Assembly: GCA_965231105.1 (NCBI GenBank)
Contig: OZ246417.1
Span: forward strand, 164,094-228,093
DNA from: an uncultured Candidatus Saccharibacteria bacterium
Lineage (GTDB): Bacteria; Patescibacteriota; Saccharimonadia; Saccharimonadales; JACDBH01
Length of the DNA: 64,000 nucleotides
Reading direction: 5' to 3'
Shown here: one piece after another, positions 6,785 through 28,045 of the stretch
Layout: the number at the start of each line of letters is the position of its first letter
How positions within the stretch are numbered: position 1 is the stretch's first letter
Position numbers and translations under genes: made by a program
Notes under the pieces: generated by a model
Database searches by the model: none
The model's input: the letters and a program-made list of their open reading frames with translations, nothing else
Told to the model about the DNA's origin: nothing

Positions 6785-7336
6785 TTACGATTGCAAAAGT
6801 TCGACATATTTCTGTGGATGTATCCAGCAATCATCATGCCCACCTGACCATGTGAGTAAAACGGGCTGTTTCATAAAGGGCAGCTGCTGAAGGTCGGGCA
6901 TGCAAAACGTATCTTCTTCGTTTCGAATAACGATTGTTTTTTGAGCCGGGAGACGCCAAATATTTCCTGCTGCGCGCCCGCGTAGCATGTTGAATGCACG
7001 ATGTAGCTGGAAAATATACAGGCTGTTCCAGGCTGTTTTATATGTCCACCATCGACGATACCTCGCGCGGAAGCTGTGCTTTGCATCATGACGGGTTTTT
7101 TGAACTGTTCCTCGTGCAATTGATTTACCGGGCCAATAAGGTATACCGATAAGGATAATCTTCTCAGCTCGGAGATCTTTAGGAATGAGGTAGCAGCCTC
7201 CTGAGTGAGCGATAATAGCATCGGCAGATGAAGGATCACTAGATAATGTATAGCCCGCATTTACTATGGCGCGCTGCATATGGCTGCCAGTGCGCTTCCC
7301 TTCGGCGCCACCATATAAAATGCACACTGTTTTCAT
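6785..7336 (-). CDS. Putative alpha/beta-fold hydrolase-like protein
   Basis: MKTVCILYGG first-strand pattern and IIAHSGGCY nucleophile-elbow-like motif. Start chosen at ATG 7336, 1 nt after the xth stop; an alternative start is 7357. Confidence 0.4.
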   Translation of the reverse strand: MKTVCILYGGAEGKRTGSHMQRAIVNAGYTLSSDPSSADAIIAHSGGCYLIPKDLRAEKIILIGIPYWPGKSIARGTVQKTRHDAKHSFRARYRRWWTYKTAWNSLYIFQLHRAFNMLRGRAAGNIWRLPAQKTIVIRNEEDTFCMPDLQQLPFMKQPVLLTWSGGHDDCWIHPQKYVELLQS

Positions 7337-7337
7337 G

Positions 7338-8135
7338 CTAGACATCGAGGTCGACACTTACCGGACAGTGGTCTGATCCAAGGACCTTGGCATGGATTTC
7401 GGCTGCCGTTACTTTATCCTTGAGTGCTTCTGAAACGAGAAAATAATCAATCCGCCAGCCTACATTACGCGCTCTGGCATTAGCCCAGTGCGTCCACCAG
7501 GTATAATGGCCGTTACCTTGGGTGAACATGCGGAATGTATCAACAAAACCAGCATCGATAAAGCGCTGGAAACCCTCCCGCTCTTCATCAGTAAAACCGT
7601 GCTTGCCGATGTTGGGGTTGGGGTTGGCTAGATCATCTTCTGTATGGGCGACATTTAAGTCTCCGCAGAAAATTACCGGCTTATGCTGTTCAAGAATCTT
7701 AATATAGGTTAAGAACGCAGGATCCCAATTCTTATGGCGAAGATCCAGGCGCGAGAGATCATCTTTACTATTTGGCGTATAAACCGTGACTAGATAAAAC
7801 TCATCATATTCAGCGGTGATTATCCGACCTTCCGTATTTGGATCACCGTATCCATCATGTACAAGCCCAAACTGCTTCGCAATTTTAATGGGAAGTCCGT
7901 AGTCGATACTTAAAGGTTTGGTTTTGGTGAAGATGGCAGTGCCGGAGTAGCCTTTACGCTCCGCTGAGTTCCAGAATTCTTCATAGTCGGGCAGATCAAC
8001 TTCGGCCTGACCCTGCATTGCTTTTGTCTCTTGCAGGCACAGGATATCTGGATCGTGCTCTTTCACAAATTTTTGAAACGTACCCTTATTCACAACCGCT
8101 CGAATACCGTTCACATTCCAGGAGTAAATCTTCAT
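7338..8135 (-). CDS. xth: Exodeoxyribonuclease III
   Basis: MKIYSWNVNGIRA, LCLQETK, GDLNVAH and SDHCPV are hallmark ExoIII/AP endonuclease motifs. Confidence 0.92.
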   Translation of the reverse strand: MKIYSWNVNGIRAVVNKGTFQKFVKEHDPDILCLQETKAMQGQAEVDLPDYEEFWNSAERKGYSGTAIFTKTKPLSIDYGLPIKIAKQFGLVHDGYGDPNTEGRIITAEYDEFYLVTVYTPNSKDDLSRLDLRHKNWDPAFLTYIKILEQHKPVIFCGDLNVAHTEDDLANPNPNIGKHGFTDEEREGFQRFIDAGFVDTFRMFTQGNGHYTWWTHWANARARNVGWRIDYFLVSEALKDKVTAAEIHAKVLGSDHCPVSVDLDV

Positions 8136-8212
8136 GCACCTTAGTATACTGTCCAGCCTGTTTGTTTTACAAAAAACTATTGTTTAAGATACGTGCGTTT
8201 CTTGACAAACCC

Positions 8213-8221
8213 TGGTAAAAT
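8213..8221 (+). promoter_or_regulatory. Extended -10 promoter element TGgTAAAAT
   Basis: TGG plus TAAAAT at 8213-8221. The ATG at 8231 lies 9 nt downstream with no SD. Confidence 0.4.
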
Positions 8222-8230
8222 AAGCCTGTT

Positions 8231-8509
8231 ATGAGCGAGACCCTTCGATACCGCGAGTTTAACCCCATTACAGAGGCATACTATGCTACTCCTGAGGTAA
8301 TTACCTCTCCTACCGAGCCTGAGGGTCTTGGAGATGTTGCTCGCATCCTGACGGGTGTGGTGTTAGTAGAGCCACTTCCTGTTCGCCCTATTGATACACT
8401 TCAGCGAGACGGTGCAGCAATTTTGCGGCTTACTCCTGAACTCAGTGCCCCCACTCCTACCACGACACTTCAAGACGTTGCTCGCTACCAAGAACGCTTA
8501 GCCGCGTAA
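8231..8509 (+). CDS. Hypothetical protein (92 aa)
   Basis: ORF downstream of an extended -10 box. Its 3' end overlaps smpB by 12 nt. No family recognised. Confidence 0.4.
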   Translation: MSETLRYREFNPITEAYYATPEVITSPTEPEGLGDVARILTGVVLVEPLPVRPIDTLQRDGAAILRLTPELSAPTPTTTLQDVARYQERLAA

Positions 8510-9027: not shown

Positions 9028-10002
9028 ATGAATACAGCAGAGCGTCTTCAAGGGTATCAGCTCTTTGGTGGCGACACGATTGAATCTATTAGCGAAGTGG
9101 CGGAGCTTCAGGCAAGTCTTTCGTATCTTAAGTTTTTCAAAGAGACTGGATTGAAAGAAACAAAATCGTTTAGAGTGCCAGGCTATAGTCCTATTGATGT
9201 TGTGGATATATTGCCAGAGAGTGCAAATAACGAAGAGGCTATCGTTTTACATTTGCCAATGGCTAACCCGCTGGATCCAAACCAACTATATAAGGTTGCG
9301 ACCATCGCAGCATTAAATCGTGGTTCTCGTGTCATTGCATCTGCAAACCCTAGCCGGCCAGGCTATAGAAGTGGGTTGCTTACACGTGCTCAGCGTATAC
9401 AAGTAGCAAAGGGCGACTTTAGACCAACCGTTGAACCGCTGGTTCGTTATCTTGAGAATCAACATGTTTCATCGGTGAGACAGGCTGGCTACTCATATGG
9501 CGCCGACAAAGCAATGGCGATGGCTGCCTTTGAAGCGTTTGATGTATCCCGAACGGTTGCCGTAGAACCCGCTTCAGTTGTACGGCGTTCTGGTATTGCC
9601 TTGGGGGCCGCGTTTGCATCGACCAAGAAGGCATTGGAAGGATACGTTGCTTTAAATGAGGTGCCCGCATTTGTCTCAGCACGAAGCAAGTCCGTTAATC
9701 GTTCGTATCCGCTAGGGCTCACGAGACTTACCAACCTTGCGATTGCACGCGGTCTAACTGATGGTAAATTTGCTCAGCGCACAAGTAAAGCACTAAAAAC
9801 GCATGAAGGCATGATCGCAACTTTTGCTTGGGGGTCTGAAAGCGAACTTGCTTTAGACGGAGCAATGAGATGCATTACTCGAGATATCGGCATGGCATAT
9901 GGTCAAGATCGTATCCGTACTTTAAGAGCCAAGGGAGCTAAGCATGCACTAGCAGATGACATCCATCTTCATGCTGCTCTAATCACTGAGGGTCTCCGTT
10001 AG
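9028..10002 (+). CDS. Putative alpha/beta hydrolase
   Basis: 324-aa ORF with GYSYGAD (GxSxG nucleophile elbow) and alternating beta/alpha character. Confidence 0.5.
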   Translation: MNTAERLQGYQLFGGDTIESISEVAELQASLSYLKFFKETGLKETKSFRVPGYSPIDVVDILPESANNEEAIVLHLPMANPLDPNQLYKVATIAALNRGSRVIASANPSRPGYRSGLLTRAQRIQVAKGDFRPTVEPLVRYLENQHVSSVRQAGYSYGADKAMAMAAFEAFDVSRTVAVEPASVVRRSGIALGAAFASTKKALEGYVALNEVPAFVSARSKSVNRSYPLGLTRLTNLAIARGLTDGKFAQRTSKALKTHEGMIATFAWGSESELALDGAMRCITRDIGMAYGQDRIRTLRAKGAKHALADDIHLHAALITEGLR

Positions 10003-10005
10003 GAG

Positions 10006-11166
10006 CTATCGGAGCTTTGCGTTTGCTTCCTCTATCTTTTGTAACGATTCTTTTGCCGCATTCCAAAGTCCAGAATCATTGAATTTTGTTTTACGCCAAT
10101 ACCACCACTCGACTCCCCAGAGATCAATCGTTTTCATGCCAGTTGCTCGTCCATACTCAATACGATCTTTTAGCATCTGCGGGTTCATGGACTTATCCTG
10201 CTCAGCTAGTGGTGTTTCTTTAGTGCCGCCCGTTGATTCGGGGGTCCACGCCTCGGTTTGAAGTTCATGAATAAAGGACTCATGCCCACGAGTAATTTCT
10301 GTAAAGGCAGCTCGAAACGCGTAATACCAGGCAGGAATTGGATATTCAAAGTAGCGTTTAGTAATAGTCTTGTCCCAGACTCGCTTATATACAGAAATTG
10401 CCCATTTATCTGGAGTTGGTTCGCCGATGGGTGTGCCGATGGCGTTATTACTCATACTCACCACAAGCGTATGATGTGGATCAATACTTTTTACCAGGTT
10501 GTATTCGTAGACGAGACGTTCTCGATCGAAGTTACTGCATAAGCCAAAAGCTTTTAGGAAATACTCATTTTCTAGTTGATAACTGTCTAATGCTGGACTG
10601 GTTTTATAGCGTTCAACAACTGCGGCGATAAAGTTATAGAGTGGCTGTTCCCAGGCATCGGCAAGGAGTTTGTCTGCCCAGGCGGGTTTATGGCATTCCG
10701 GCCAGCGTGGTTGGCGTAATCCGATAGCGAGGCTTACCTTCACATTGTGTTCTTCGGCCATGCGGAATTGCCAGTCAAGCTCATCAAAATTATACGTACC
10801 TTGAGTAGGCTCGATATTTTCCCAGTAACTCACAAGGCGCAAACGTTTAATGCCGAGATCGGTAATAATCGCCTGCATAGTTTCTTTAGGATCTAGGTCA
10901 TAGTAACGAGCATAATCAGGTATAAATGTAGCGCCGAATGTAACTGGCACATTACGATTTTTATAAATATACCACTGCGCCAATCCATACATTGAACCGA
11001 TCAAAAAGACTACCAAGGCTATAAGCCCAATAAACGCCTTACGCCAAAAATGAACTTTTACTGTCCAGTGTGTGAAATTACCCCATAACTGTTGCCAAAA
11101 ACCCACATTTCGCGCCGGTTTGCGTTTGTGGGGCGGAGTTTTTTTCTTTTGTTGGATGTTTGCCAT
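10006..11166 (-). CDS. Membrane-anchored glycoside hydrolase (clan GH-A TIM-barrel type)
   Basis: RLVSYWENIEPTQGTYNFDELDWQF...HNVKVSLAIG and QLENEYF (NE acid/base motif). N-terminal basic region plus TM. Start trimmed to ATG 11166 (MANIQQKKK). Confidence 0.6.
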   Translation of the reverse strand: MANIQQKKKTPPHKRKPARNVGFWQQLWGNFTHWTVKVHFWRKAFIGLIALVVFLIGSMYGLAQWYIYKNRNVPVTFGATFIPDYARYYDLDPKETMQAIITDLGIKRLRLVSYWENIEPTQGTYNFDELDWQFRMAEEHNVKVSLAIGLRQPRWPECHKPAWADKLLADAWEQPLYNFIAAVVERYKTSPALDSYQLENEYFLKAFGLCSNFDRERLVYEYNLVKSIDPHHTLVVSMSNNAIGTPIGEPTPDKWAISVYKRVWDKTITKRYFEYPIPAWYYAFRAAFTEITRGHESFIHELQTEAWTPESTGGTKETPLAEQDKSMNPQMLKDRIEYGRATGMKTIDLWGVEWWYWRKTKFNDSGLWNAAKESLQKIEEANAKLR

Positions 11167-14182: not shown

Positions 14183-14782
14183 TTAAGCTTCAGGTTTGAA
14201 TAAGGCACCGTGCACACTTGCTATGCCGGCGGCATACCCCAGCTGTGCTTTTCGAAGACTCTTTGTATCGTTAGCGATTTCAGGAAACTCACTCACTCGA
14301 ACAAGTTCGAGCGTATCAATTACGTGTGCAAGGGGATCATCATGAGCCGTGAGGTATGCTAGTCTTTTCCTAGATTCATGTATAACGCGTTCATCTGCTG
14401 CATCCTGAGCCGCGAAATTTGGTGCTCTCAGGCCCGGCAGCTTAATACCAGCTTCCCCCTGCTTAATGGCATCAAAGCGATTAAGGGCCAGCCAGTCTTC
14501 ATACACGGCTAGTTCGCTTGGTTTATATTGCACCTGCTGTAGTGCTTGCCTAAACACGTTAATATGAACCCCATGTCCTGGTGAGATACGGCCTGTTTTA
14601 AAGAATAGTTCTCCCAGTCCTTTCGTGACCCTATCTGCTCGTTCGAATCGTGTTACATCTCCTTCGCCTTGAATGACCCGTAAGGTAGTACGTTGTGAGC
14701 TGCTAATTCGAGGTTTTCTAAGAGGTTCACCCATGTCTTCATAGTACGCTACTAGTAGCGTAGGTGTTGTGATAAAAATCAC
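14183..14782 (-). CDS. Hypothetical protein (up to 199 aa)
   Basis: ORF only. The start may be the internal ATG at 14734. Confidence 0.4.
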   Translation of the reverse strand: MIFITTPTLLVAYYEDMGEPLRKPRISSSQRTTLRVIQGEGDVTRFERADRVTKGLGELFFKTGRISPGHGVHINVFRQALQQVQYKPSELAVYEDWLALNRFDAIKQGEAGIKLPGLRAPNFAAQDAADERVIHESRKRLAYLTAHDDPLAHVIDTLELVRVSEFPEIANDTKSLRKAQLGYAAGIASVHGALFKPEA

Positions 14783-17146: not shown

Positions 17147-17371
17147 ATGTTTTTTGCAGCAGTAGAAAATCTCGACGTTCTTGCCAAAGGTATCATGATG
17201 GGCTTTGGTATGCTCGGGCCAGCAATTGGTATTGGGCTAATTGGTAACGCATTTATGAATGCCGTTGGTCGTAACCCAGAAGCAAGTAAGTATTTGGGTC
17301 AGATTTTGGTTATTATCGCTATCGTTGAGCTAATGGCGCTCCTCGTATTTGCATCACTTTTCATTATTTAA
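17147..17371 (+). CDS. atpE: ATP synthase Fo subunit c
   Basis: 74-aa hairpin with GRNPEA loop and IAIVELMALLVF carboxylate helix. No Q/ES/T Na+ signature, so the H+ type is likely. Confidence 0.9.
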   Translation: MFFAAVENLDVLAKGIMMGFGMLGPAIGIGLIGNAFMNAVGRNPEASKYLGQILVIIAIVELMALLVFASLFII

Positions 17372-17387
17372 GGAGAAGAAACACCAC

Positions 17388-17918
17388 ATGAATCTCACAT
17401 TGTTTGCAGCTGAAGCGGCCGAACACGAAAGTGGCATCTTAGGTTTTAACCTCGGCGCATTTGCTATCCAGCTTGTTACTTTCATCTTTGTGTTTCTCTT
17501 ATTAAAACGCTTTGCATTCCAGCCGATCGTTAACCTGCTTGAGAAGCGACGCCAGACAATTGAGGATGGTGTGCGCTTAGGTGAAAAAATGGAAAAGCGT
17601 CAGGAAAAGCTTGAAGAAGAAGCCCAGGCGGTTATCCGTGATGCACGTCATGACGCTGATCGTATTATCGCGAATGCACATAAGGAATCACGTGAAGTTT
17701 TGCGCGAAGCTGAAAAGACTGCCAAGAAGAAGACTGATGCTCTGCTTCAGGATGCACAGGAACGTATTGAAGAAGAAACAGAACGAGCTCGTCGAAGTCT
17801 TGAAAAAGATATCGTGGGACTTGTGTCTGAGGCTACTGAAGCCGTAGTACATGAAAAAGTGGATGCCAAAAAAGATGCTGAGCTTATTGACCGAGCAATG
17901 AAAGGTCGGAAGAAATAA
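17388..17918 (+). CDS. atpF: ATP synthase Fo subunit b
   Basis: One N-terminal TM, then a long charged helix. AAGGAG SD at 17370-17375. Start trimmed to ATG 17388. Confidence 0.85.
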   Translation: MNLTLFAAEAAEHESGILGFNLGAFAIQLVTFIFVFLLLKRFAFQPIVNLLEKRRQTIEDGVRLGEKMEKRQEKLEEEAQAVIRDARHDADRIIANAHKESREVLREAEKTAKKKTDALLQDAQERIEEETERARRSLEKDIVGLVSEATEAVVHEKVDAKKDAELIDRAMKGRKK

Positions 17919-18316
17919 TGATTGACCGTCGCCAACTCGCTGAAGCGATTGCTGAGCGCACAATGCATATTAAAAACATTGCCCAGCTAAAACGCGAAGT
18001 AGCTGCATATTTGTTGGCGGAGCACCGAACGCACGATATTGATTCTTTGATACGAGATATTGTTGCTTACCGTGCTGAACATGGGCTCATTGAGGCAACG
18101 GCCATCAGTGCCTATCCTCTGACCGCTCAGGTTCGTAAGGAGGTGATGCAGGAGCTGAAGGTCGAGTACCCTCATGCTAAGAGCATCGTTATAAATGAAA
18201 AAATTGACCCAGGAGTGATTGGCGGTGTGCGTATTGAGGCGGTGAATGAACAGCTCGACCTTACCGTTCGGTCAAAACTGAATACCTTAAAACGTTTAAC
18301 AGCAGCGAGGAACTAA
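17918..18316 (+). CDS. atpH: ATP synthase F1 delta (OSCP) subunit, short form (132 aa)
   Basis: The C-terminal half (IDPGVIGGVRIEAVNEQLDLTVRSKLNTLKRL) matches the OSCP C-domain. Its ATG overlaps the atpF stop by 1 nt, so no longer N-terminus is available. Confidence 0.75.
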   Translation: MIDRRQLAEAIAERTMHIKNIAQLKREVAAYLLAEHRTHDIDSLIRDIVAYRAEHGLIEATAISAYPLTAQVRKEVMQELKVEYPHAKSIVINEKIDPGVIGGVRIEAVNEQLDLTVRSKLNTLKRLTAARN

Positions 18317-19868: not shown

Positions 19869-20273
19869 ATGGGTTGCAACGAGTTTGAGTTATACCCTAA
19901 TAAGTATTATGATTCCGCTCTGCTTGATGATGTGGAGTCAGCGCCAACAAGAATGCCACGCGAAATCTTCTATGCTGGTAATGATGGAGAAAAAGTCACT
20001 GGTGTAGTGAGCGCGGTAGCGGACGCTGTTGTGAGAGTGCAGAAGGCCAATGGGATAAGTGATGAAGGTGTTCTTGCTGTAAGTCGGGAAGCTGCATCTT
20101 ATGCGGCTAATATTTTGCTATCGGCATTGGGTAATGTGGGCGAGGTAAGTCTTGGAAACTTAAAAAATCCGGACCCTCACTTTGCCGGAATAGTAGAAGA
20201 AGTAACAGATATTACTCTAGATCCTACTAAAGCGGTAGAACTAGAGTATGAAACGAGAACAATAGATGGCTAG
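19869..20273 (+). CDS. Hypothetical acidic protein embedded between atpA and atpG (134 aa)
   Basis: The ATG lies 1 nt after the atpA stop, with GAGGAG SD at 19853-19858. The 3' end overlaps the atpG start by 8 nt. No TM; no family recognised. Confidence 0.65.
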   Translation: MGCNEFELYPNKYYDSALLDDVESAPTRMPREIFYAGNDGEKVTGVVSAVADAVVRVQKANGISDEGVLAVSREAASYAANILLSALGNVGEVSLGNLKNPDPHFAGIVEEVTDITLDPTKAVELEYETRTIDG

Positions 20274-21138
20274 CACCCAAATACTCCAGCGACGCATCAA
20301 AAGCGTTCGTAGTACTCGCCAGATTACCAAGGCGATGGAGTTAGTGGCCGCCAGTAAAATGCGTCGAGCTACTGAGGCTGCGCAGCAAGGCCGGGCATAT
20401 CGTGAAGCTGCCCATCAGTTACTTTCACGCCTTACGACCGTCACGGATGTTAATGAACATCCATTATTTACGCAACGTGAAATTAAAACTCGTCTCTATA
20501 TTGCCATTACCAGTGACCGGGGTTTGGCGGGTGCCTATAATTCCAACATTATAAAGCTCCTCAGCCGCTCGGCCCTAGAGGATAGCAAGCAGGGTATTAA
20601 GACCAAGGCAGTTATAGTTGGTAATCGTGGCGTACAGTTTGTGCGTCGTATAGAAGGTATCGAATTGATTGCTGCTTTCCCTGGTTTTGGCGACCACCCC
20701 ACTGCGAATGACGTGCGCCCCATTCTTACAAACATTATCGATCTGTATGCTGCAGCCGAAGTTGACGATGTGCAGTTACTTTATACGGTACATAAATCAA
20801 ATATTCTCCAAGAAGCCAATGCTCTTTCACTCTTGCCCGCCCGTTTAGACGAAACAGCTCCAGAAACAACCGAATCGCTTAATAATGTCACGTTTGAACC
20901 TTCAATTACAGCAGTGCTTGATAATGTTACCGAGCGTTTGCTCGAGGTACAGATTTGGCAAGGAGTATTAGAAAGTATCGCCTCAGAGCACTCTATGCGT
21001 ATGTTAAGCATGAAGAACGCTACAGATAATGCCAATGATCTTATTGACGACCTGACCCTTGCTTTTAACACTGCCCGACAGGCAGGCATTACCCAGGAAA
21101 TAGCCGAAGTAACCGGTGGAGCGGAAGCAATGAAATGA
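20266..21138 (+). CDS. atpG: ATP synthase F1 gamma subunit
   Basis: RIKSVRSTRQITKAMELVAASKMRRA at the N-terminus and NTARQAGITQEIAEVTGGAEA at the C-terminus. Confidence 0.95.
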   Translation: MASTQILQRRIKSVRSTRQITKAMELVAASKMRRATEAAQQGRAYREAAHQLLSRLTTVTDVNEHPLFTQREIKTRLYIAITSDRGLAGAYNSNIIKLLSRSALEDSKQGIKTKAVIVGNRGVQFVRRIEGIELIAAFPGFGDHPTANDVRPILTNIIDLYAAAEVDDVQLLYTVHKSNILQEANALSLLPARLDETAPETTESLNNVTFEPSITAVLDNVTERLLEVQIWQGVLESIASEHSMRMLSMKNATDNANDLIDDLTLAFNTARQAGITQEIAEVTGGAEAMK

Positions 21139-21488
21139 GCAGCCTACCCGAAAGCAAGGATCTTGTTATTGTGCACACCCTCGACTACCCTGCCATGCGA
21201 AAAGTTATTGAAAATGCCGGGGTTAAGCCGCCTTTCTATATTCATAGTTTTGTTGATTCAGGGAGAGATGCCCAGAATGCGGCTGTATATGGCGCGGTTC
21301 AGCGTGCAGATGTGGTGCTCTTGCAGCAGAGTCGAACGGGCGTATTGAACAGCGCGGTTGAACTAGCTATTCAAGCATTGCTCGATGATTCTCGTGAAGA
21401 AAACGACGTGCTGTTCTTCAATGATGATGGCAGTATGTATGTAAAACCCACTCAAGTTATTGAAGCGAGAATTGCGGAGGCCTCGTAA
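21135..21488 (+). CDS. Hypothetical protein embedded between atpG and atpD, 1 of 4 (117 aa)
   Basis: ATGA overlap with the atpG stop. Alternating beta/alpha pattern (LVIVHTL..., ADVVLLQQSRTG...). No TM. Confidence 0.6.
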   Translation: MSSLPESKDLVIVHTLDYPAMRKVIENAGVKPPFYIHSFVDSGRDAQNAAVYGAVQRADVVLLQQSRTGVLNSAVELAIQALLDDSREENDVLFFNDDGSMYVKPTQVIEARIAEAS

Positions 21489-21489
21489 T

Positions 21490-21822
21490 ATGGTGGTTTC
21501 CCAATATAGTCAAAATCTTAGAGCCATACATCAAGCATCTATAGATGAGGTGCTCAAGGAACTTCCTGAAGCGCAGCAGGCGGTTGACTCTGCTCGACTT
21601 GCTTTTGGATCAACAATTAGTGCGATTGGTGAAGTGTATGGTACAAGGCACAGAAAAACGATTATACGTCGATTTGGTCGGCCATTTGTGAATGATGAAG
21701 TGATCTATGATGCCGAACAAGCGGAGGACGGTCGTACACAAGTGTCCTGCATTATAGGGATAGTGGCTGCCCGCTCATTTCAAATGGGCTTTAATGCGGC
21801 TCGGGCTAAGGGGGAGGCATGA
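21490..21822 (+). CDS. Hypothetical protein embedded between atpG and atpD, 2 of 4 (110 aa)
   Basis: The ATG lies 1 nt after the preceding stop. GGAGG SD at 21476-21480 with 9-nt spacing. Basic patch RHRKTIIRRFGRPF. Confidence 0.6.
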   Translation: MVVSQYSQNLRAIHQASIDEVLKELPEAQQAVDSARLAFGSTISAIGEVYGTRHRKTIIRRFGRPFVNDEVIYDAEQAEDGRTQVSCIIGIVAARSFQMGFNAARAKGEA

Positions 21823-22114
21823 ACGGAGAAAAATCTAATCAGCTATTTGACGATGCCTTGTATGCTCCTGAGATACATCTGATCAATGGTCATGTACCGG
21901 TAGATAGTGAAGCTAAGCCTCCTGCAGAAACAATTTACGAGTATGTCGCAGGTAAAGTGCCTTTAAATGGTACAGATCCAGAAGTTGTTCGGGCAGTATA
22001 TCGATTAGCATACGGAGATGCTCTAAAGTCAGTGTTAGATACGGATGGCAAGGAACTCATCGCTCAGCCCACAACACCGCAAAAACCAAGAACACGAGTA
22101 AGAGGGGGTAAAAG

Positions 22115-22118
<4 letters not shown>
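21819..22118 (+). CDS. Hypothetical protein embedded between atpG and atpD, 3 of 4 (99 aa)
   Basis: ATGA overlap with the preceding gene. G-rich SD at 21807-21817. Basic C-terminal tail PQKPRTRVRGGKR. Confidence 0.55.
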
Positions 22119-23750
<1,632 letters not shown>

Positions 23751-23751
<1 letters not shown>

Positions 23752-23990
23752 TGGCTTTTCCTCGTCAAGCGGATCTGGATATGCCTAACTTTACCCACGA
23801 AGTTATCCCTACGCCTTACGGAAGCCTGGTGCATTACACCCCCATTCCTTTGCAGGAAGTAGTAGAAGTAGAACCGGTTCAAAAAACACAATCGGTTCCT
23901 ACTCCGCGCTATTTTGATAGCATGTTTCCTTTCGGCTTCCCCGACCCGCACGGCTATCCTGGTAAAGAAAGTAGATCCGAGACAGCATGA
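23751..23990 (+). CDS. Hypothetical proline-rich protein embedded between atpD and atpC (79 aa)
   Basis: TAATG overlap with the atpD stop. Strong AAGGAGG SD at 23737-23743. ATGA overlap with the atpC start. Low-complexity and Pro-rich. Confidence 0.55.
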
Positions 23991-24412
23991 TTCACTTTAG
24001 CCTATACAGTTTAAACGGTCTGCAGTTTGATGAAGAGGTGTATGAAATCACCCTGCCCACAATGAGCGGTGAGATTGGAGTGCTGCCTGCTCACATGCCG
24101 CTCGTGAGTGTAGCTTCATCTGGTGTTGTGCAGATTCGACGCAATGCTGGGGATCGAGATGATCAACGCGAAGCCTTTGCTATTAGCGGTGGAGTTATTC
24201 AGGTGGAAAACAATGTTTTGAAATTACTTGTCGACGAAGCAGATCATGCCGATGAAATTAATGAACAAGAAGTACAAAAAGCCTACGAGTTAGCGAAGAA
24301 AATGAAAGCTGAAGCAAAGGATCAGGTTTCACTTGATCAGGCACAAAGTCTTATGGACCGCCAGGCAGTACGACTGCAGGTAGCTGGCCTTAAGCGTCAG
24401 AAGAGACGCTAA
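23987..24412 (+). CDS. atpC: ATP synthase F1 epsilon subunit
   Basis: 141 aa. The N-terminal beta-sandwich pattern (GEIGVLPAHMPLVS, ISGGVIQV) is followed by a C-terminal helical hairpin. Confidence 0.88.
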   Translation: MIHFSLYSLNGLQFDEEVYEITLPTMSGEIGVLPAHMPLVSVASSGVVQIRRNAGDRDDQREAFAISGGVIQVENNVLKLLVDEADHADEINEQEVQKAYELAKKMKAEAKDQVSLDQAQSLMDRQAVRLQVAGLKRQKRR

Positions 24413-24460
24413 AGGCACGGTTAACGATCTACGATTACACTAGATAACTTGTTATTTTTC

Positions 24461-24469
24461 TGCTATAAT
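24461..24469 (+). promoter_or_regulatory. Extended -10 promoter element TGcTATAAT
   Basis: TGC plus TATAAT at 24461-24469, about 80 nt upstream of the ATG at 24549, which has an AAGGAA SD. Confidence 0.45.
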
Positions 24470-24548: not shown

Positions 24549-25724
24549 ATGGTCTTGCGACTAATCAAAAAACGCACCCCTCTATTGCTTTGCCCGGGCC
24601 CTGTATTGCTTTCAAAAAAGGTCCGTAAGGCTGTTATTGCAACAAATATTGGGCATCGCGAGCCAGAATTTTCAGCAATACTATCTGAGTGTTCTCAGAT
24701 GATAAAGCCTATCGTCGGTATTAGTGGTAAAAGTACTGCTTATGAAGTAGCCTTTATTACTGGTTCAGGTACTGCCGCCAATGAAACAGTTCTTTCCAGT
24801 GTCGGAGCACGAGGCCACATACTTGTTGTTAGCAACGGTGAGTTTGGTGAGAGACTTTTTGATGTTGCAAAACTTCATAACAATCAGGTAGACCAGCTAA
24901 AGTTTAAGTGGCAAGAAAAAATCGATCTTACAAAGGTTGCACATGCCCTCAAGCTCAAGAAATACAGCTTGGTTGCTATGGTCCATCATGAAACTAGCAC
25001 AGGACTTCTTAACCCGGTTAAGGAAGTGGCTGCTCTCGCCCATAAGCATGGCGCTCTTATTTCTGTCGATGCAATTAGCAGCATTGGTGCAGAAGCGATT
25101 GAAGTAAAAAAATGGGGTGTTGATATTCTTGTAGGTGCATCTGGCAAAGCCCTCTCTGCTATGCCAGGTGTTGGCATACTGATCGCAAAAAAGGATGTCA
25201 TCAATAAACTCAAAGGATTCGCAAATCGTATTCACTACCTCGATCTTTATAAGCACATCGTATATATGCGAGACTATACCCAGACGCCGAATACCCCTGC
25301 AGTACATGTATTTGTTTCCCTCCATGCATCCCTGAAAGAAATCACTCACTTCGGGGTTATGAAATTCCGCCAAAACATTCAGAAACGTGCACAGTATGTT
25401 CGAGACGAATTATTAAGACTCGGCCTCGTATATACAAACTATGAGGGCAGCAATTCACGAGTTATTACCTGCGTTAACCTTCCTTCGCATCTTAGTTTTT
25501 CTCAACTAAGCAGCTTTTTAAAGAAAAAAGGCATCATTGTCTATAACGGCAAGGGTGTATTAAAAGATAGAATATTCCAAATTGGGCATATTGGGGCGCT
25601 AAAAACCAAAGACACTAAATATGCTATGAAACAGATAGCGAAAGTAGTAAAACAATCTGAAGTGAGAAAGACAGCTCATGAGCTAAGTGCGCTTGCTTCG
25701 GAGAGGGTTGTGCACGGTGTCTAA
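24549..25724 (+). CDS. Class V aminotransferase (PhnW/AGXT-like, PLP-dependent)
   Basis: LLCPGPV, ITGSGTAANETV, VVSNGEFGER, MVHHETSTGLLNP and VGASGKAL (PLP Lys) follow the 2-aminoethylphosphonate-pyruvate / serine-pyruvate aminotransferase pattern. Confidence 0.75.
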   Translation: MVLRLIKKRTPLLLCPGPVLLSKKVRKAVIATNIGHREPEFSAILSECSQMIKPIVGISGKSTAYEVAFITGSGTAANETVLSSVGARGHILVVSNGEFGERLFDVAKLHNNQVDQLKFKWQEKIDLTKVAHALKLKKYSLVAMVHHETSTGLLNPVKEVAALAHKHGALISVDAISSIGAEAIEVKKWGVDILVGASGKALSAMPGVGILIAKKDVINKLKGFANRIHYLDLYKHIVYMRDYTQTPNTPAVHVFVSLHASLKEITHFGVMKFRQNIQKRAQYVRDELLRLGLVYTNYEGSNSRVITCVNLPSHLSFSQLSSFLKKKGIIVYNGKGVLKDRIFQIGHIGALKTKDTKYAMKQIAKVVKQSEVRKTAHELSALASERVVHGV

Positions 25725-26508
25725 GCAAACTGTAAAGCCAAGTTCGGTCATCGAACCAAATTACTTCAGTAACTGGGGAGATCTTTGGTACCCGTATGTT
25801 GCGAATAAGATTTTGCCTATAGCAAGCAGAATAAAATGGCTTATGCCAAATCATGTCACTATTCTGTCATTCATTCTGTACGCAGTTGGAGTGGGTCTTG
25901 CTGCTGCGACTGCATCGCCCGTCTATATTGCTGCTATCCTTTTGCCCCTTTCTTACATCCTTGACTGCTTAGATGGTCAGCTTGCACGCTTCACAGGCAG
26001 AACATCAGAAGTCGGAGATTATCTCGATAAAACTCTCGATGTTTTTAAAATATTTATTATTAATCTTGGAATGGGAATAGCGGCCTTCCGATTTACAGAT
26101 AAAAATTATTTTATTATTTTAGGCTTTATTTCTTGTTTTGGCTTCCTATTTAGGTATTACATTAAACTGGAAACAATGTTTGGTGCGGTAAACAAAGATA
26201 AAGATTATCTTAGTAAGTCACGTAGCCGAAGACATGCCTTATACGCTGAGCTTAATGAGAAGAAACTGCAACCAAAATCTTTTACGGAAAAACTTCGTTG
26301 GCTATGGGTGCGGCATCATGCTGTTTTTGCGCTCGATGAAGCTGAGCATGTAACCTTTGGGGCGATTGCTATCCTGTTTGGGCGGCCCGATATATGGTGC
26401 TGGGTATTTGCGGTCGGGCAACTTACTATTGCCTGCACTCGTTTATTCGAGCGCGGCTGGCAGATAACAAAAGCACCAGAATCATTAACATACCCTTTAA
26501 GAAAATAG
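25687..26508 (+). CDS. CDP-alcohol phosphatidyltransferase family membrane protein
   Basis: DCLDGQLARFTGRTSEVGDYLDKTLD matches D(x2)DG(x2)AR(x8)G(x3)D(x3)D. Multi-TM. The start is GTG at 25687 or GTG at 25717; both overlap the upstream gene. Confidence 0.8.
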   Translation: MRLLRRGLCTVSKQTVKPSSVIEPNYFSNWGDLWYPYVANKILPIASRIKWLMPNHVTILSFILYAVGVGLAAATASPVYIAAILLPLSYILDCLDGQLARFTGRTSEVGDYLDKTLDVFKIFIINLGMGIAAFRFTDKNYFIILGFISCFGFLFRYYIKLETMFGAVNKDKDYLSKSRSRRHALYAELNEKKLQPKSFTEKLRWLWVRHHAVFALDEAEHVTFGAIAILFGRPDIWCWVFAVGQLTIACTRLFERGWQITKAPESLTYPLRK

Positions 26509-26518
26509 AGGATTTACC

Positions 26519-27244
26519 ATGAAAGCAGTTATTCTTGTGGCGGGTTTCGGAAGTCGATTACGGCCCCTTACAGACGAGATGCCTAAATCTTTATTGCCGA
26601 TTGGCGATTCTACGACGCTTGCTCGTATGGTCAATAGCTTAGTAGCCCACTCAATCACCGAGATTGTGTTTATAACCGGGCATTTTGAAGACAAGATAAA
26701 AAGCTATGTGCAAGAAAACTTTCCTAATATTACCGCACACTTTATTCGGAACGAGTATTACAAAGAAACAAACACTGGCTACTCTCTGCTTCTCGCTGAA
26801 CCCTATGTGCGTGGAGAGACATTCATAAAGTTTGACGGAGATGTTAATTTTGATCCACAGATTCTCGATAAACTCGTAGCTACTCCAGAAGATGCAAATT
26901 ACATTTGCCTTGATAAGACGGATGTCGATGACGAAGTTATTAAGGCCGAACTTAATAGTAAGAATGAAATCGTTGCTCTCGGCAAATATGTCGATACCGC
27001 AAAGGCTGCCGGCGAATCGATAGGCATAGAAAAAATAGCGGCCCAATTCTCAGAAGAGCTATTTGATAGCCTTCGCCAGATAATGAGTGATAAAAAGAAC
27101 TGGCAAGAATATTATGAGTATGCATATGACCATCTCATTCAAAACGGGAAGAGTATCTTTAAGCACATCGATATTACCGGAAGCAAATGGGTAGAGATGG
27201 ATAATCTACAAGATTATCAACTTGCTCAAAAATATTTTGGTTAA
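26519..27244 (+). CDS. LicC-like nucleotidyltransferase (phospho-alcohol/phosphonate cytidylyltransferase type)
   Basis: MKAVILVAGFGSRLRPLTDEMPKSLLPI signature, plus ETNTGYSL and DGDV motifs. Confidence 0.75.
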   Translation: MKAVILVAGFGSRLRPLTDEMPKSLLPIGDSTTLARMVNSLVAHSITEIVFITGHFEDKIKSYVQENFPNITAHFIRNEYYKETNTGYSLLLAEPYVRGETFIKFDGDVNFDPQILDKLVATPEDANYICLDKTDVDDEVIKAELNSKNEIVALGKYVDTAKAAGESIGIEKIAAQFSEELFDSLRQIMSDKKNWQEYYEYAYDHLIQNGKSIFKHIDITGSKWVEMDNLQDYQLAQKYFG

Positions 27245-27322: not shown

Positions 27323-28045
27323 ATGACAGTTCGTTCCAAGGTCGCCATGCTGGTGGCTGAGTTTCTTGGTACCGGCATTTTAGCGACAGCTATTATTAAC
27401 GTAGCACGTTCCCAGATCGGTATCGGTTATTTCGTAGCATTTAGTGCTGCTATTGCCTATGCAATGGCGGTGTTGGTATTCCGTGGTACTTCAGGTGCAC
27501 ATTTTAACCCTGCGGTAACCATTGGTATGTGGACCTTGCGTAAGATTCAAACCGTACAGGCACTTGCATACATTGCGGCGCAAATGCTTGGTGGCTTAGC
27601 TGCATGGCGCTTGTCTGAATACTTTGTTGGTCAATCCCTTACCAGTCTCACTGCTCAGACTTTCGACTGGCGCGTGCTTATCGCCGAGGGGCTTGGTGCC
27701 CTCGTGTTTACCTTTGGTATCGCTGCAGCCGTTTACCAGAACTATGAAGGTGGTAAGTTTGCCGGAACTGTAGCAGTTTCGCTCTTTACCGGTATTGTTG
27801 TCGCCTCAGTAGCTTCTAACGCTCTACTCAACCCTGCGGTTGCACTTGCGAACCAGAGCTGGGATCGCGCATATATCTTTGGACCACTCGTGGGCGGTAT
27901 TGTAGGTATGAACTTGTATGCTCTATTGTTTGCACCAGATCGTGCATTGGTTGCCGACATGGAAGCTTCGTCCGCTACTACAGTTACGCGCTCAACTCGT
28001 ACAACTCGTGGCGCAAAGAAAACAACTGCTCGTCGCAAGCGTTAG
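27323..28045 (+). CDS. MIP family channel (aquaporin/glycerol facilitator)
   Basis: Two NPA boxes (HFNPAVT, LNPAVA) and six hydrophobic segments. GGAGGG SD. Confidence 0.9.
   Translation: MTVRSKVAMLVAEFLGTGILATAIINVARSQIGIGYFVAFSAAIAYAMAVLVFRGTSGAHFNPAVTIGMWTLRKIQTVQALAYIAAQMLGGLAAWRLSEYFVGQSLTSLTAQTFDWRVLIAEGLGALVFTFGIAAAVYQNYEGGKFAGTVAVSLFTGIVVASVASNALLNPAVALANQSWDRAYIFGPLVGGIVGMNLYALLFAPDRALVADMEASSATTVTRSTRTTRGAKKTTARRKR

Follow-up and report, generated by a model that had tools for sequence, protein, structure and literature searches.

The window, i.e., the entire 64,000-nucleotide stretch of DNA analysed here, carries an ATP-synthase operon in the order atpI-like, a, c, b, delta, alpha, X1, gamma, X2, X3, X4, X5, beta, X6, epsilon, where X1 to X6 are orphan ORFs inserted between the subunit genes. 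X6 is located at 23751–23990 on the + strand, encodes 79 amino acids (pI 4.87, 16% Pro) and terminates with TGA at 23988–23990. Upstream it adjoins atpD, the gene of the F1 beta subunit (22357–23751, +; 464 aa, 79–91% identical to beta of 75 relatives), which ends with TAA at 23749–23751. The last A of this stop codon is also the first letter of the X6 start codon (ATG, 23751–23753), creating a TAATG overlap at 23749–23753 (+). At the 3′ end, the X6 stop codon overlaps the start codon (ATG, 23987–23989) of atpC within an ATGA motif at 23987–23990 (+). The atpC gene (23987–24412, +) encodes an F1 epsilon subunit of 141 aa that matches Pfam ATP-synt_DE_N (PF02823, 2.4e-17), and the identity of the remaining ATP-synthase subunits in the window was likewise confirmed by Pfam. 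With its start on the beta stop and its stop on the epsilon start, X6 has the geometry of a coupled cistron.

The X6 start codon is preceded by the Shine-Dalgarno (SD) sequence AAGGAGG at 23737–23743 (+), which lies 7 nt 5′ of the ATG and is embedded in the 3′ end of atpD (last codons …EVKEEK*). The SD position and both overlaps agree with those reported in a preliminary description of the locus. SD strength was evaluated as duplex energy with the anti-SD, yielding −11.8 kcal/mol for X5, −10.9 kcal/mol for X6 and −10.6 kcal/mol for X4, compared to −9.3 kcal/mol for beta and −3.0 kcal/mol for both gamma and epsilon; the 44 long ORFs of the window showed a mean of −3.5 and a minimum of −10.1. 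The preliminary description had regarded the X6 SD as the strongest in the operon, which is correct for the length of the perfect match, but by duplex energy it comes second after that of X5. Part of the SD (GAGGAGAA) can pair with UUUUCCUC in codons 2–5 of X6, forming a hairpin at 23740–23763 (+) with the start codon in its loop. The hairpin has a folding energy of −9.6 kcal/mol (z −1.9), a modest edge over shuffled sequences since 8 out of 200 shuffles were equally good. It may limit initiation at X6 to ribosomes arriving from beta.

Overlapping stop and start codons of the ATGA and TAATG type couple translation in bacterial operons, including the atp operon of E. coli. The X6 locus resembles such ordinary coupling in using the same motifs and in having a downstream gene with a weak SD that would depend on upstream termination. 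The ATGA at 23987–23990, where the epsilon start has a weak SD match, is likely a site of termination-reinitiation. Unlike in ordinary coupling, an extra cistron would relay ribosomes between subunits of fixed stoichiometry, and sister species carry unrelated cistrons in its place.

The open frame of X6 by itself is weak evidence for coding, as 11–13% of shuffles of the 235-nt beta/epsilon gap were as open as the X6 frame (p about 0.11–0.13). Codon usage was more informative. The log-likelihood of the annotated frame was the best of all six (0.091 per codon), a score that exceeds those of 99.8% of off-frame windows and ranks at the 11th percentile when set against genuine 79-codon windows read in frame. 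An antisense ORF overlaps X6 at 23709–23951 (−; 80 codons, GTG start); its codon usage is not gene-like.

Sensitive searches identified no homolog of X6 beyond its narrow lineage, so that it qualifies as an orphan. A word-indexed search of 5.8 billion proteins and an exhaustive phmmer search of 1.84 billion cluster representatives each returned only the self match, and there was no match in Pfam, NCBIfam, PHROGs, PADLOC, PDB (phmmer) or phage records (tblastn). In particular, Pfam, NCBIfam and PDB showed no relation of X6 to epsilon, to proteins of the IF1 or zeta type or to any other known family. Identical copies occur in an NCBI contig of 903 kb and in two Logan contigs, and the runs ERR2586216 and ERR2586217 carry identical contigs. 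Beta and epsilon of the same genome are singletons at 90% identity, and public data therefore hold no closer relative. The X6 product is proline-rich, as had been described previously. The earlier impression of intrinsic disorder is correct in part: a single-sequence AlphaFold2 model (mean pLDDT 66) gave low confidence for most of the protein, and a beta-hairpin at residues 14–31 (THEVIPTPYGSLVHYTPI; 23790–23843, +), with a pLDDT of 84–91, is the sole confident part of the model.

Further inserted ORFs of the operon

X6 is accompanied by five further orphan ORFs between 19869 and 22360, one at the alpha/gamma and four at the gamma/beta junction. X1 (19869–20273, +, 134 aa) starts 1 nt past the alpha stop, and its 3′ end shares 8 nt with the start of gamma. 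X2 (21135–21488, +, 117 aa) follows gamma via an ATGA overlap. X3 (21490–21822, +, approximately 110 aa) has its likely start at ATG 21490, 1 nt past the X2 stop and with an SD of −9.5; this start was preferred to the TTG at 21460 given in the ORF listing. X4 (21819–22118, +, 99 aa) shares ATGA overlaps with X3 at its start and with X5 at its stop, and X5 (22115–22360, +, 81 aa, pI 4.05) ends in an ATGA overlap with the beta start codon. All six ORFs thus lie on the same strand and begin on the preceding stop or 1 nt later, and their 3′ ends overlap the next start except for X2, which ends 1 nt before X3. For all six, the codon-usage log-likelihood was highest in the annotated one of the six frames, and none could be assigned to a Pfam, PHROGs, NCBIfam or PADLOC family. 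A homology search with X2 returned the self match only. For this protein a low-confidence alpha/beta model was obtained (pLDDT 59), whose matches were generic, flavodoxin-like and of E above 1e-3, and no fold was concluded.

Several other features of the window were recorded. The delta (OSCP) gene at 17918–18316 encodes 132 aa matching positions 65–170 of the 172 positions of Pfam OSCP, so that, from this alignment, a large part of the N-terminal domain appears to be missing; delta of the related locus L081 is likewise short (127 aa). Directly 3′ of atpC, a block of three genes at 24549–27244 encodes a class-V aminotransferase, a CDP-alcohol phosphatidyltransferase and an NTP transferase. It is flanked by epsilon and a conserved MIP-channel gene (27323–28045), is accompanied by a promoter-like site at 24441–24469 and has no counterpart in the loci of 77 relatives. 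On the opposite strand, a 199-aa ORF without Pfam family (14183–14782, −) lies between conserved CobA-like and glutaredoxin genes; it has a match in one of the 77 relatives, and across the relatives this junction shows a bimodal gap length (0–100 or 500–800 nt).

Occupancy of F1 junctions in related genomes

Relatives were collected by scanning the species genomes of GTDB with epsilon, which yielded 77 loci with an epsilon identity of 45–75%, nearly all labelled as Saccharibacteria or Saccharimonadales. One contig (L036, CAJCIR010000060.1) is labelled "Chlamydiae bacterium"; its atp locus is of the Saccharibacteria type with a beta 90% identical to that of the window, and the contig is probably mis-binned. 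A tblastn search with X1 to X6 against the 77 relatives gave no matches. Gaps of at least 200 nt were frequent at the same three junctions, occurring in 17 of 62 loci at alpha/gamma, in 32 of 66 at gamma/beta and in 18 of 75 at beta/epsilon. The five Fo-side junctions taken together showed such gaps in only 5 of 248 cases, in comparison to 67 of 203 for the F1 junctions (Fisher p = 8e-21). Inserts are also present, though rarely, on the Fo/stalk side: gaps of 370 nt between b and delta were found in two GTDB loci, and in L081 a 121-aa orphan ORF is located between b and delta (7349–7714). As a control, other syntenic junctions were inspected and also found to be variable, for instance the distance from epsilon to the MIP-channel gene, which ranged from 64 to 6685 nt. 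General genome plasticity may therefore contribute to part of the junction pattern, but the contrast between the Fo side and the F1 side inside one operon still stands.

The length of the beta/epsilon gap is bimodal, with most loci at 18 nt or less, 21 loci at 139 nt or more, and only two values, 46 and 64 nt, in between. The slot is empty (gap below 100 nt) in 54 of the 75 loci covering the junction, and 20 loci have genuine gaps, which contain unrelated ORFs. One apparent insert (L047, 1695–1931) turned out to be the beta C-terminus in another frame, due to a frameshift or sequencing error in the MAG, and was excluded. All 21 beta/epsilon gaps, i.e., those of the 20 relatives and of the window, are at least 95% open in one + frame, compared to 1.35 expected from shuffles. 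The ORFs of the relatives start on the beta stop (TAATG) in 10 out of 20 cases and 1–3 nt past it in another seven; their stops form an ATGA with epsilon in nine and abut the epsilon ATG in four of the 20. Public gene calls, which were made independently, include such gap ORFs, as for L081 with the order b, 121 aa, delta, alpha, 112, 107, gamma, 97, beta, 69, epsilon. According to the preliminary description, a frame not conserved in relatives would speak against its reading. The sequence of X6 is indeed not conserved, but the slot, when occupied, always holds an open and coupled frame. Together with the geometry, the SD and the codon usage, these ORF-filled slots support the earlier view that X6 is truly coding and is coupled to both beta and epsilon.

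Composition, selection and turnover of the gap ORFs

The gap ORFs of at least 40 aa are highly diverse, 98 of the 115 being singletons by blastp. When 90 gap ORFs were chosen so as not to overlap, no more than four of them had a Pfam match, all of the coiled-coil type. Their pooled composition at first and second codon positions (G1 0.39, G2 0.18, T1 0.14) is virtually equal to that of the F1 subunits, whereas stop-free shuffles reached a G1 of only 0.28. A pI below 5 was found for 70% of the gap ORFs, a share that was 12% among background ORFs and 1% among stop-free shuffles. This protein-like codon-position composition and the low pI are not what would be expected of sequence in which nothing but the absence of stop codons is maintained. 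At third positions, pooled over the relatives, C3 was 0.16 in the inserts compared to 0.30 in the F1 genes of the same mRNA, which suggests a different translational selection or a younger age of the inserts.

Between GTDB species representatives, the inserts gain non-synonymous changes roughly 2–12 times faster than the subunits. As dS was mostly saturated at this distance, closer Logan contigs were included, which gave usable dN/dS values. For the pair L067/L080, dN/dS was 0.37 for the alpha/gamma insert compared to 0.019 for alpha and 0 for gamma. The pair L068/L081 yielded 0.27 for the alpha/gamma insert, 0.17 for the 69-aa beta/epsilon insert and 0.017–0.034 for the core subunits. Overall, insert families ranged from 0.17 to 0.43 and core subunits from 0.01 to 0.05, values that describe the few insert families still alignable, which are siblings of X6 rather than X6 itself and biased towards the more constrained ones. 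One insert pair showed a dN/dS of 1.3. The range of 0.17–0.43 indicates purifying selection on at least some of the slot occupants, which is far weaker than that acting on the enzyme.

Gain and loss of inserts is evident among the closest relatives. The nearest relative of the window, with 90% alpha+beta identity, has no inserts, and the beta/epsilon spacer is just 9–10 nt long in L003 and L005 (about 89–90% alpha+beta identity to the window). Three different insert patterns occur in the nearest relatives L003, L005 and L008 (88–90% identity). L003 has none and L005 two inserts, at an alpha+beta identity of 96.7% between them, and similar differences were observed for L015/L023 and L028/L079. 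At the alpha/gamma junction, insert modules appear in different combinations, namely [a,b,c] in L065, [a′,AG2] in L081 and [AG2] in L067 and L068. Homologs of the alpha/gamma insert of L067 were found in two close clusters only. For an insert common to L011 and L014, dS was 0.20 despite saturation in the genes on either side, which suggests recent transfer.

Hints of how the inserts arose are scattered over several loci. X1 to X6 have no second copy in the 64-kb window, where only short chance matches were detected, and they carry neither boundary repeats nor attC-like repeats. In L011, a groundwater Saccharibacterium, the atp gaps are built from two families of dispersed, partly palindromic (MITE-like) repeats of approximately 165 nt, with copies at 6896–7062, 10541–10707 and 17219–17389 for the first family and at 1817–1982, 8183–8345 and 9821–9983 for the second. 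One repeat copy lies inside the open gamma/beta frame. In the other loci no dispersed copies were found within 20 kb. The alpha/gamma gap of L077 contains a duplicated gamma 5′ fragment within the insert (gap positions ~354–431), which may be a scar of insertion or recombination. A 1.8-kb Logan contig (L084) is 100% identical to L081 on its left and to L065 on its right, with the switch inside gamma. Since this contig could represent an assembly chimera as well as a natural recombinant that swapped junction modules, it was set aside as evidence for recombination.

Possible origin and role of X6

Taken together, we consider X6 to be a genuine translated orphan gene that belongs to a fast-turnover, mostly acidic class of ORFs at the F1 junctions of Saccharimonadales, and we assign this reading, which is drawn from sequence comparison, a probability of roughly 0.6. 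Ribosomes ending beta synthesis at the UAA would restart on the overlapping AUG, aided by the AAGGAGG, which the hairpin would otherwise mask. They would then translate the 79 codons of X6 and terminate at the UGA overlapping the epsilon AUG. The weak SD match of epsilon and the UGA/AUG overlap lead us to propose that X6 supplies the ribosomes for epsilon synthesis by termination-reinitiation. Its acidic, Pro-rich and largely disordered product would be dispensable and lineage-specific rather than a conserved subunit or regulator.

This class shares with phage morons and integron cassettes that its members are small, mostly orphan, quickly gained, lost or shuffled and expressed from a host operon. 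X6 differs from both in having no boundary repeats, no promoter or terminator of its own and no similarity to phage or defence systems, and also in that the inserted ORFs abut by stop/start overlaps without a spacer. An integron gene cassette was ruled out owing to the missing attC-type boundary repeats and the overlapping ORFs, and a phage moron or prophage remnant owing to the missing phage similarity and the absence of own promoter or terminator signals above chance. A likeness to Rickettsia palindromic elements or MITEs is confined to the L011 gaps with their palindromic repeats. For X1 to X6, insertion of such an element was rejected because none of them has a second copy in the window.

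Tentatively, the reading of X6 as a member of this class may be extended further. The F1 junctions could serve as an expression platform for the exchange of small acidic proteins, with X6 as the beta/epsilon module and the products acting as species-specific modulators of an ATPase that runs in reverse or as factors in epibiont-host interaction or conflict. Cassette-like modules would be gained, lost and shuffled without an integron-type site, and the highly conserved alpha, gamma, beta and epsilon genes may provide the anchors for recombination. Such anchored recombination would be a plausible route of exchange, as Saccharibacteria are naturally transformable (PMC10633639).

As an alternative, translation alone might matter. 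The ORF would keep epsilon coupled and avoid polarity, and the peptide would be functionless and selected only to be harmless, i.e., acidic and soluble. This is in line with frames that are always open and coupled at both ends, the extreme turnover seen in the many singletons, the repeat-derived gaps of L011, including the copy within the open gamma/beta frame, a C3 that falls well short of that of the highly expressed F1 genes, and the single pair with a dN/dS above 1. We nevertheless regard it as doubtful, since the other families have dN/dS values of 0.17–0.43, the composition at first and second positions is strongly protein-like, the bimodal beta/epsilon gaps include few intermediate lengths that would indicate decay, and some inserts look folded or coiled-coil.

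The preliminary description had suggested, from the position of X6 next to epsilon, that it might be a regulatory peptide. More broadly, X6 could be a regulatory or assembly peptide that binds F1, e.g., beside epsilon or beta, and the other inserts could likewise be species-specific partners. Known small inhibitors of F-type ATPases are the epsilon C-terminal domain, mitochondrial IF1, the alphaproteobacterial zeta subunit and cyanobacterial AtpTheta. X6 resembles them in being small, partly disordered and encoded in the same operon as epsilon, and curbing ATP hydrolysis would be a plausible role in a fermentative organism. The inhibitors, however, are conserved in their lineages and form recognisable families, while X6 has no homolog, model or structure match and is missing from the closest relatives. 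It was therefore rejected as a known ATP-synthase subunit or inhibitor, showing neither family similarity nor conservation alongside the enzyme.

For a partner outside these families, several observations can be put forward. X6 belongs to the F1 gene block and is co-transcribed and translationally coupled, the inserts cluster at F1 rather than Fo junctions, and an acidic composition is common to the class despite the absent homology. The modelled beta-hairpin could in principle extend the sheet of a partner. Against this, F1 subunits that are 80–95% identical within the clade coexist with slot occupants that are unrelated or absent, the closest relatives included, and near-identical operons exchange their occupants. 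The epsilon C-terminal domain contacts the acidic DELSEED region, for which an acidic protein is an unlikely partner. Since variable ORFs occur equally at the alpha/gamma and gamma/beta junctions, proximity to epsilon is not special. The absence of X6 homologs, the empty slot in L003 and L005 and the unrelated occupants elsewhere thus offer no support for the earlier suggestion and weaken it, and to judge from these comparisons we consider species-specific F1 partners improbable and a conserved regulatory role of X6 at F1 unlikely. Lineage-specific control is conceivable, given that the F-type ATP synthase of Southlakia epibionticum was dispensable in culture by Tn-seq (PMC10633639) and that Saccharibacteria probably run the enzyme in reverse.

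Finally, a reading of X6 as non-coding, either a spacer or an RNA element left open by chance, would fit its non-significant openness at a single locus, the open antisense frame and the lack of a homolog, but is highly improbable in view of the frame-specific codon usage, the strong SD, the exact overlaps at both ends, the 21 out of 21 open gaps, promoter and terminator signals at chance counts, the lack of an Rfam match in the operon and a folding energy equal to that of shuffles (z = −0.24). For the latter two reasons, a structured RNA element was also discarded as a candidate.

Regarding X6 as one of a class of translated orphan genes has consequences beyond this locus. ATP-synthase operons are among the most conserved bacterial gene arrangements, and their repeated interruption by unrelated orphan genes in the F1 half only was unexpected. 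The literature searched contained no account of ORFs inserted into the atp operons of Saccharibacteria, and the clade-wide pattern appears to be undescribed in the searchable literature. For annotation, the "hypothetical" ORFs of these operons would have to be treated as real features rather than artefacts, while adjoining atpC is no evidence for a regulatory function. The inserts also draw attention to a reservoir of small, acidic and so far uncharacterised Saccharibacteria proteins. In addition, the F1 junctions would provide a natural system for studying the birth or capture of small genes in an essential-looking operon in which subunit stoichiometry stays intact.
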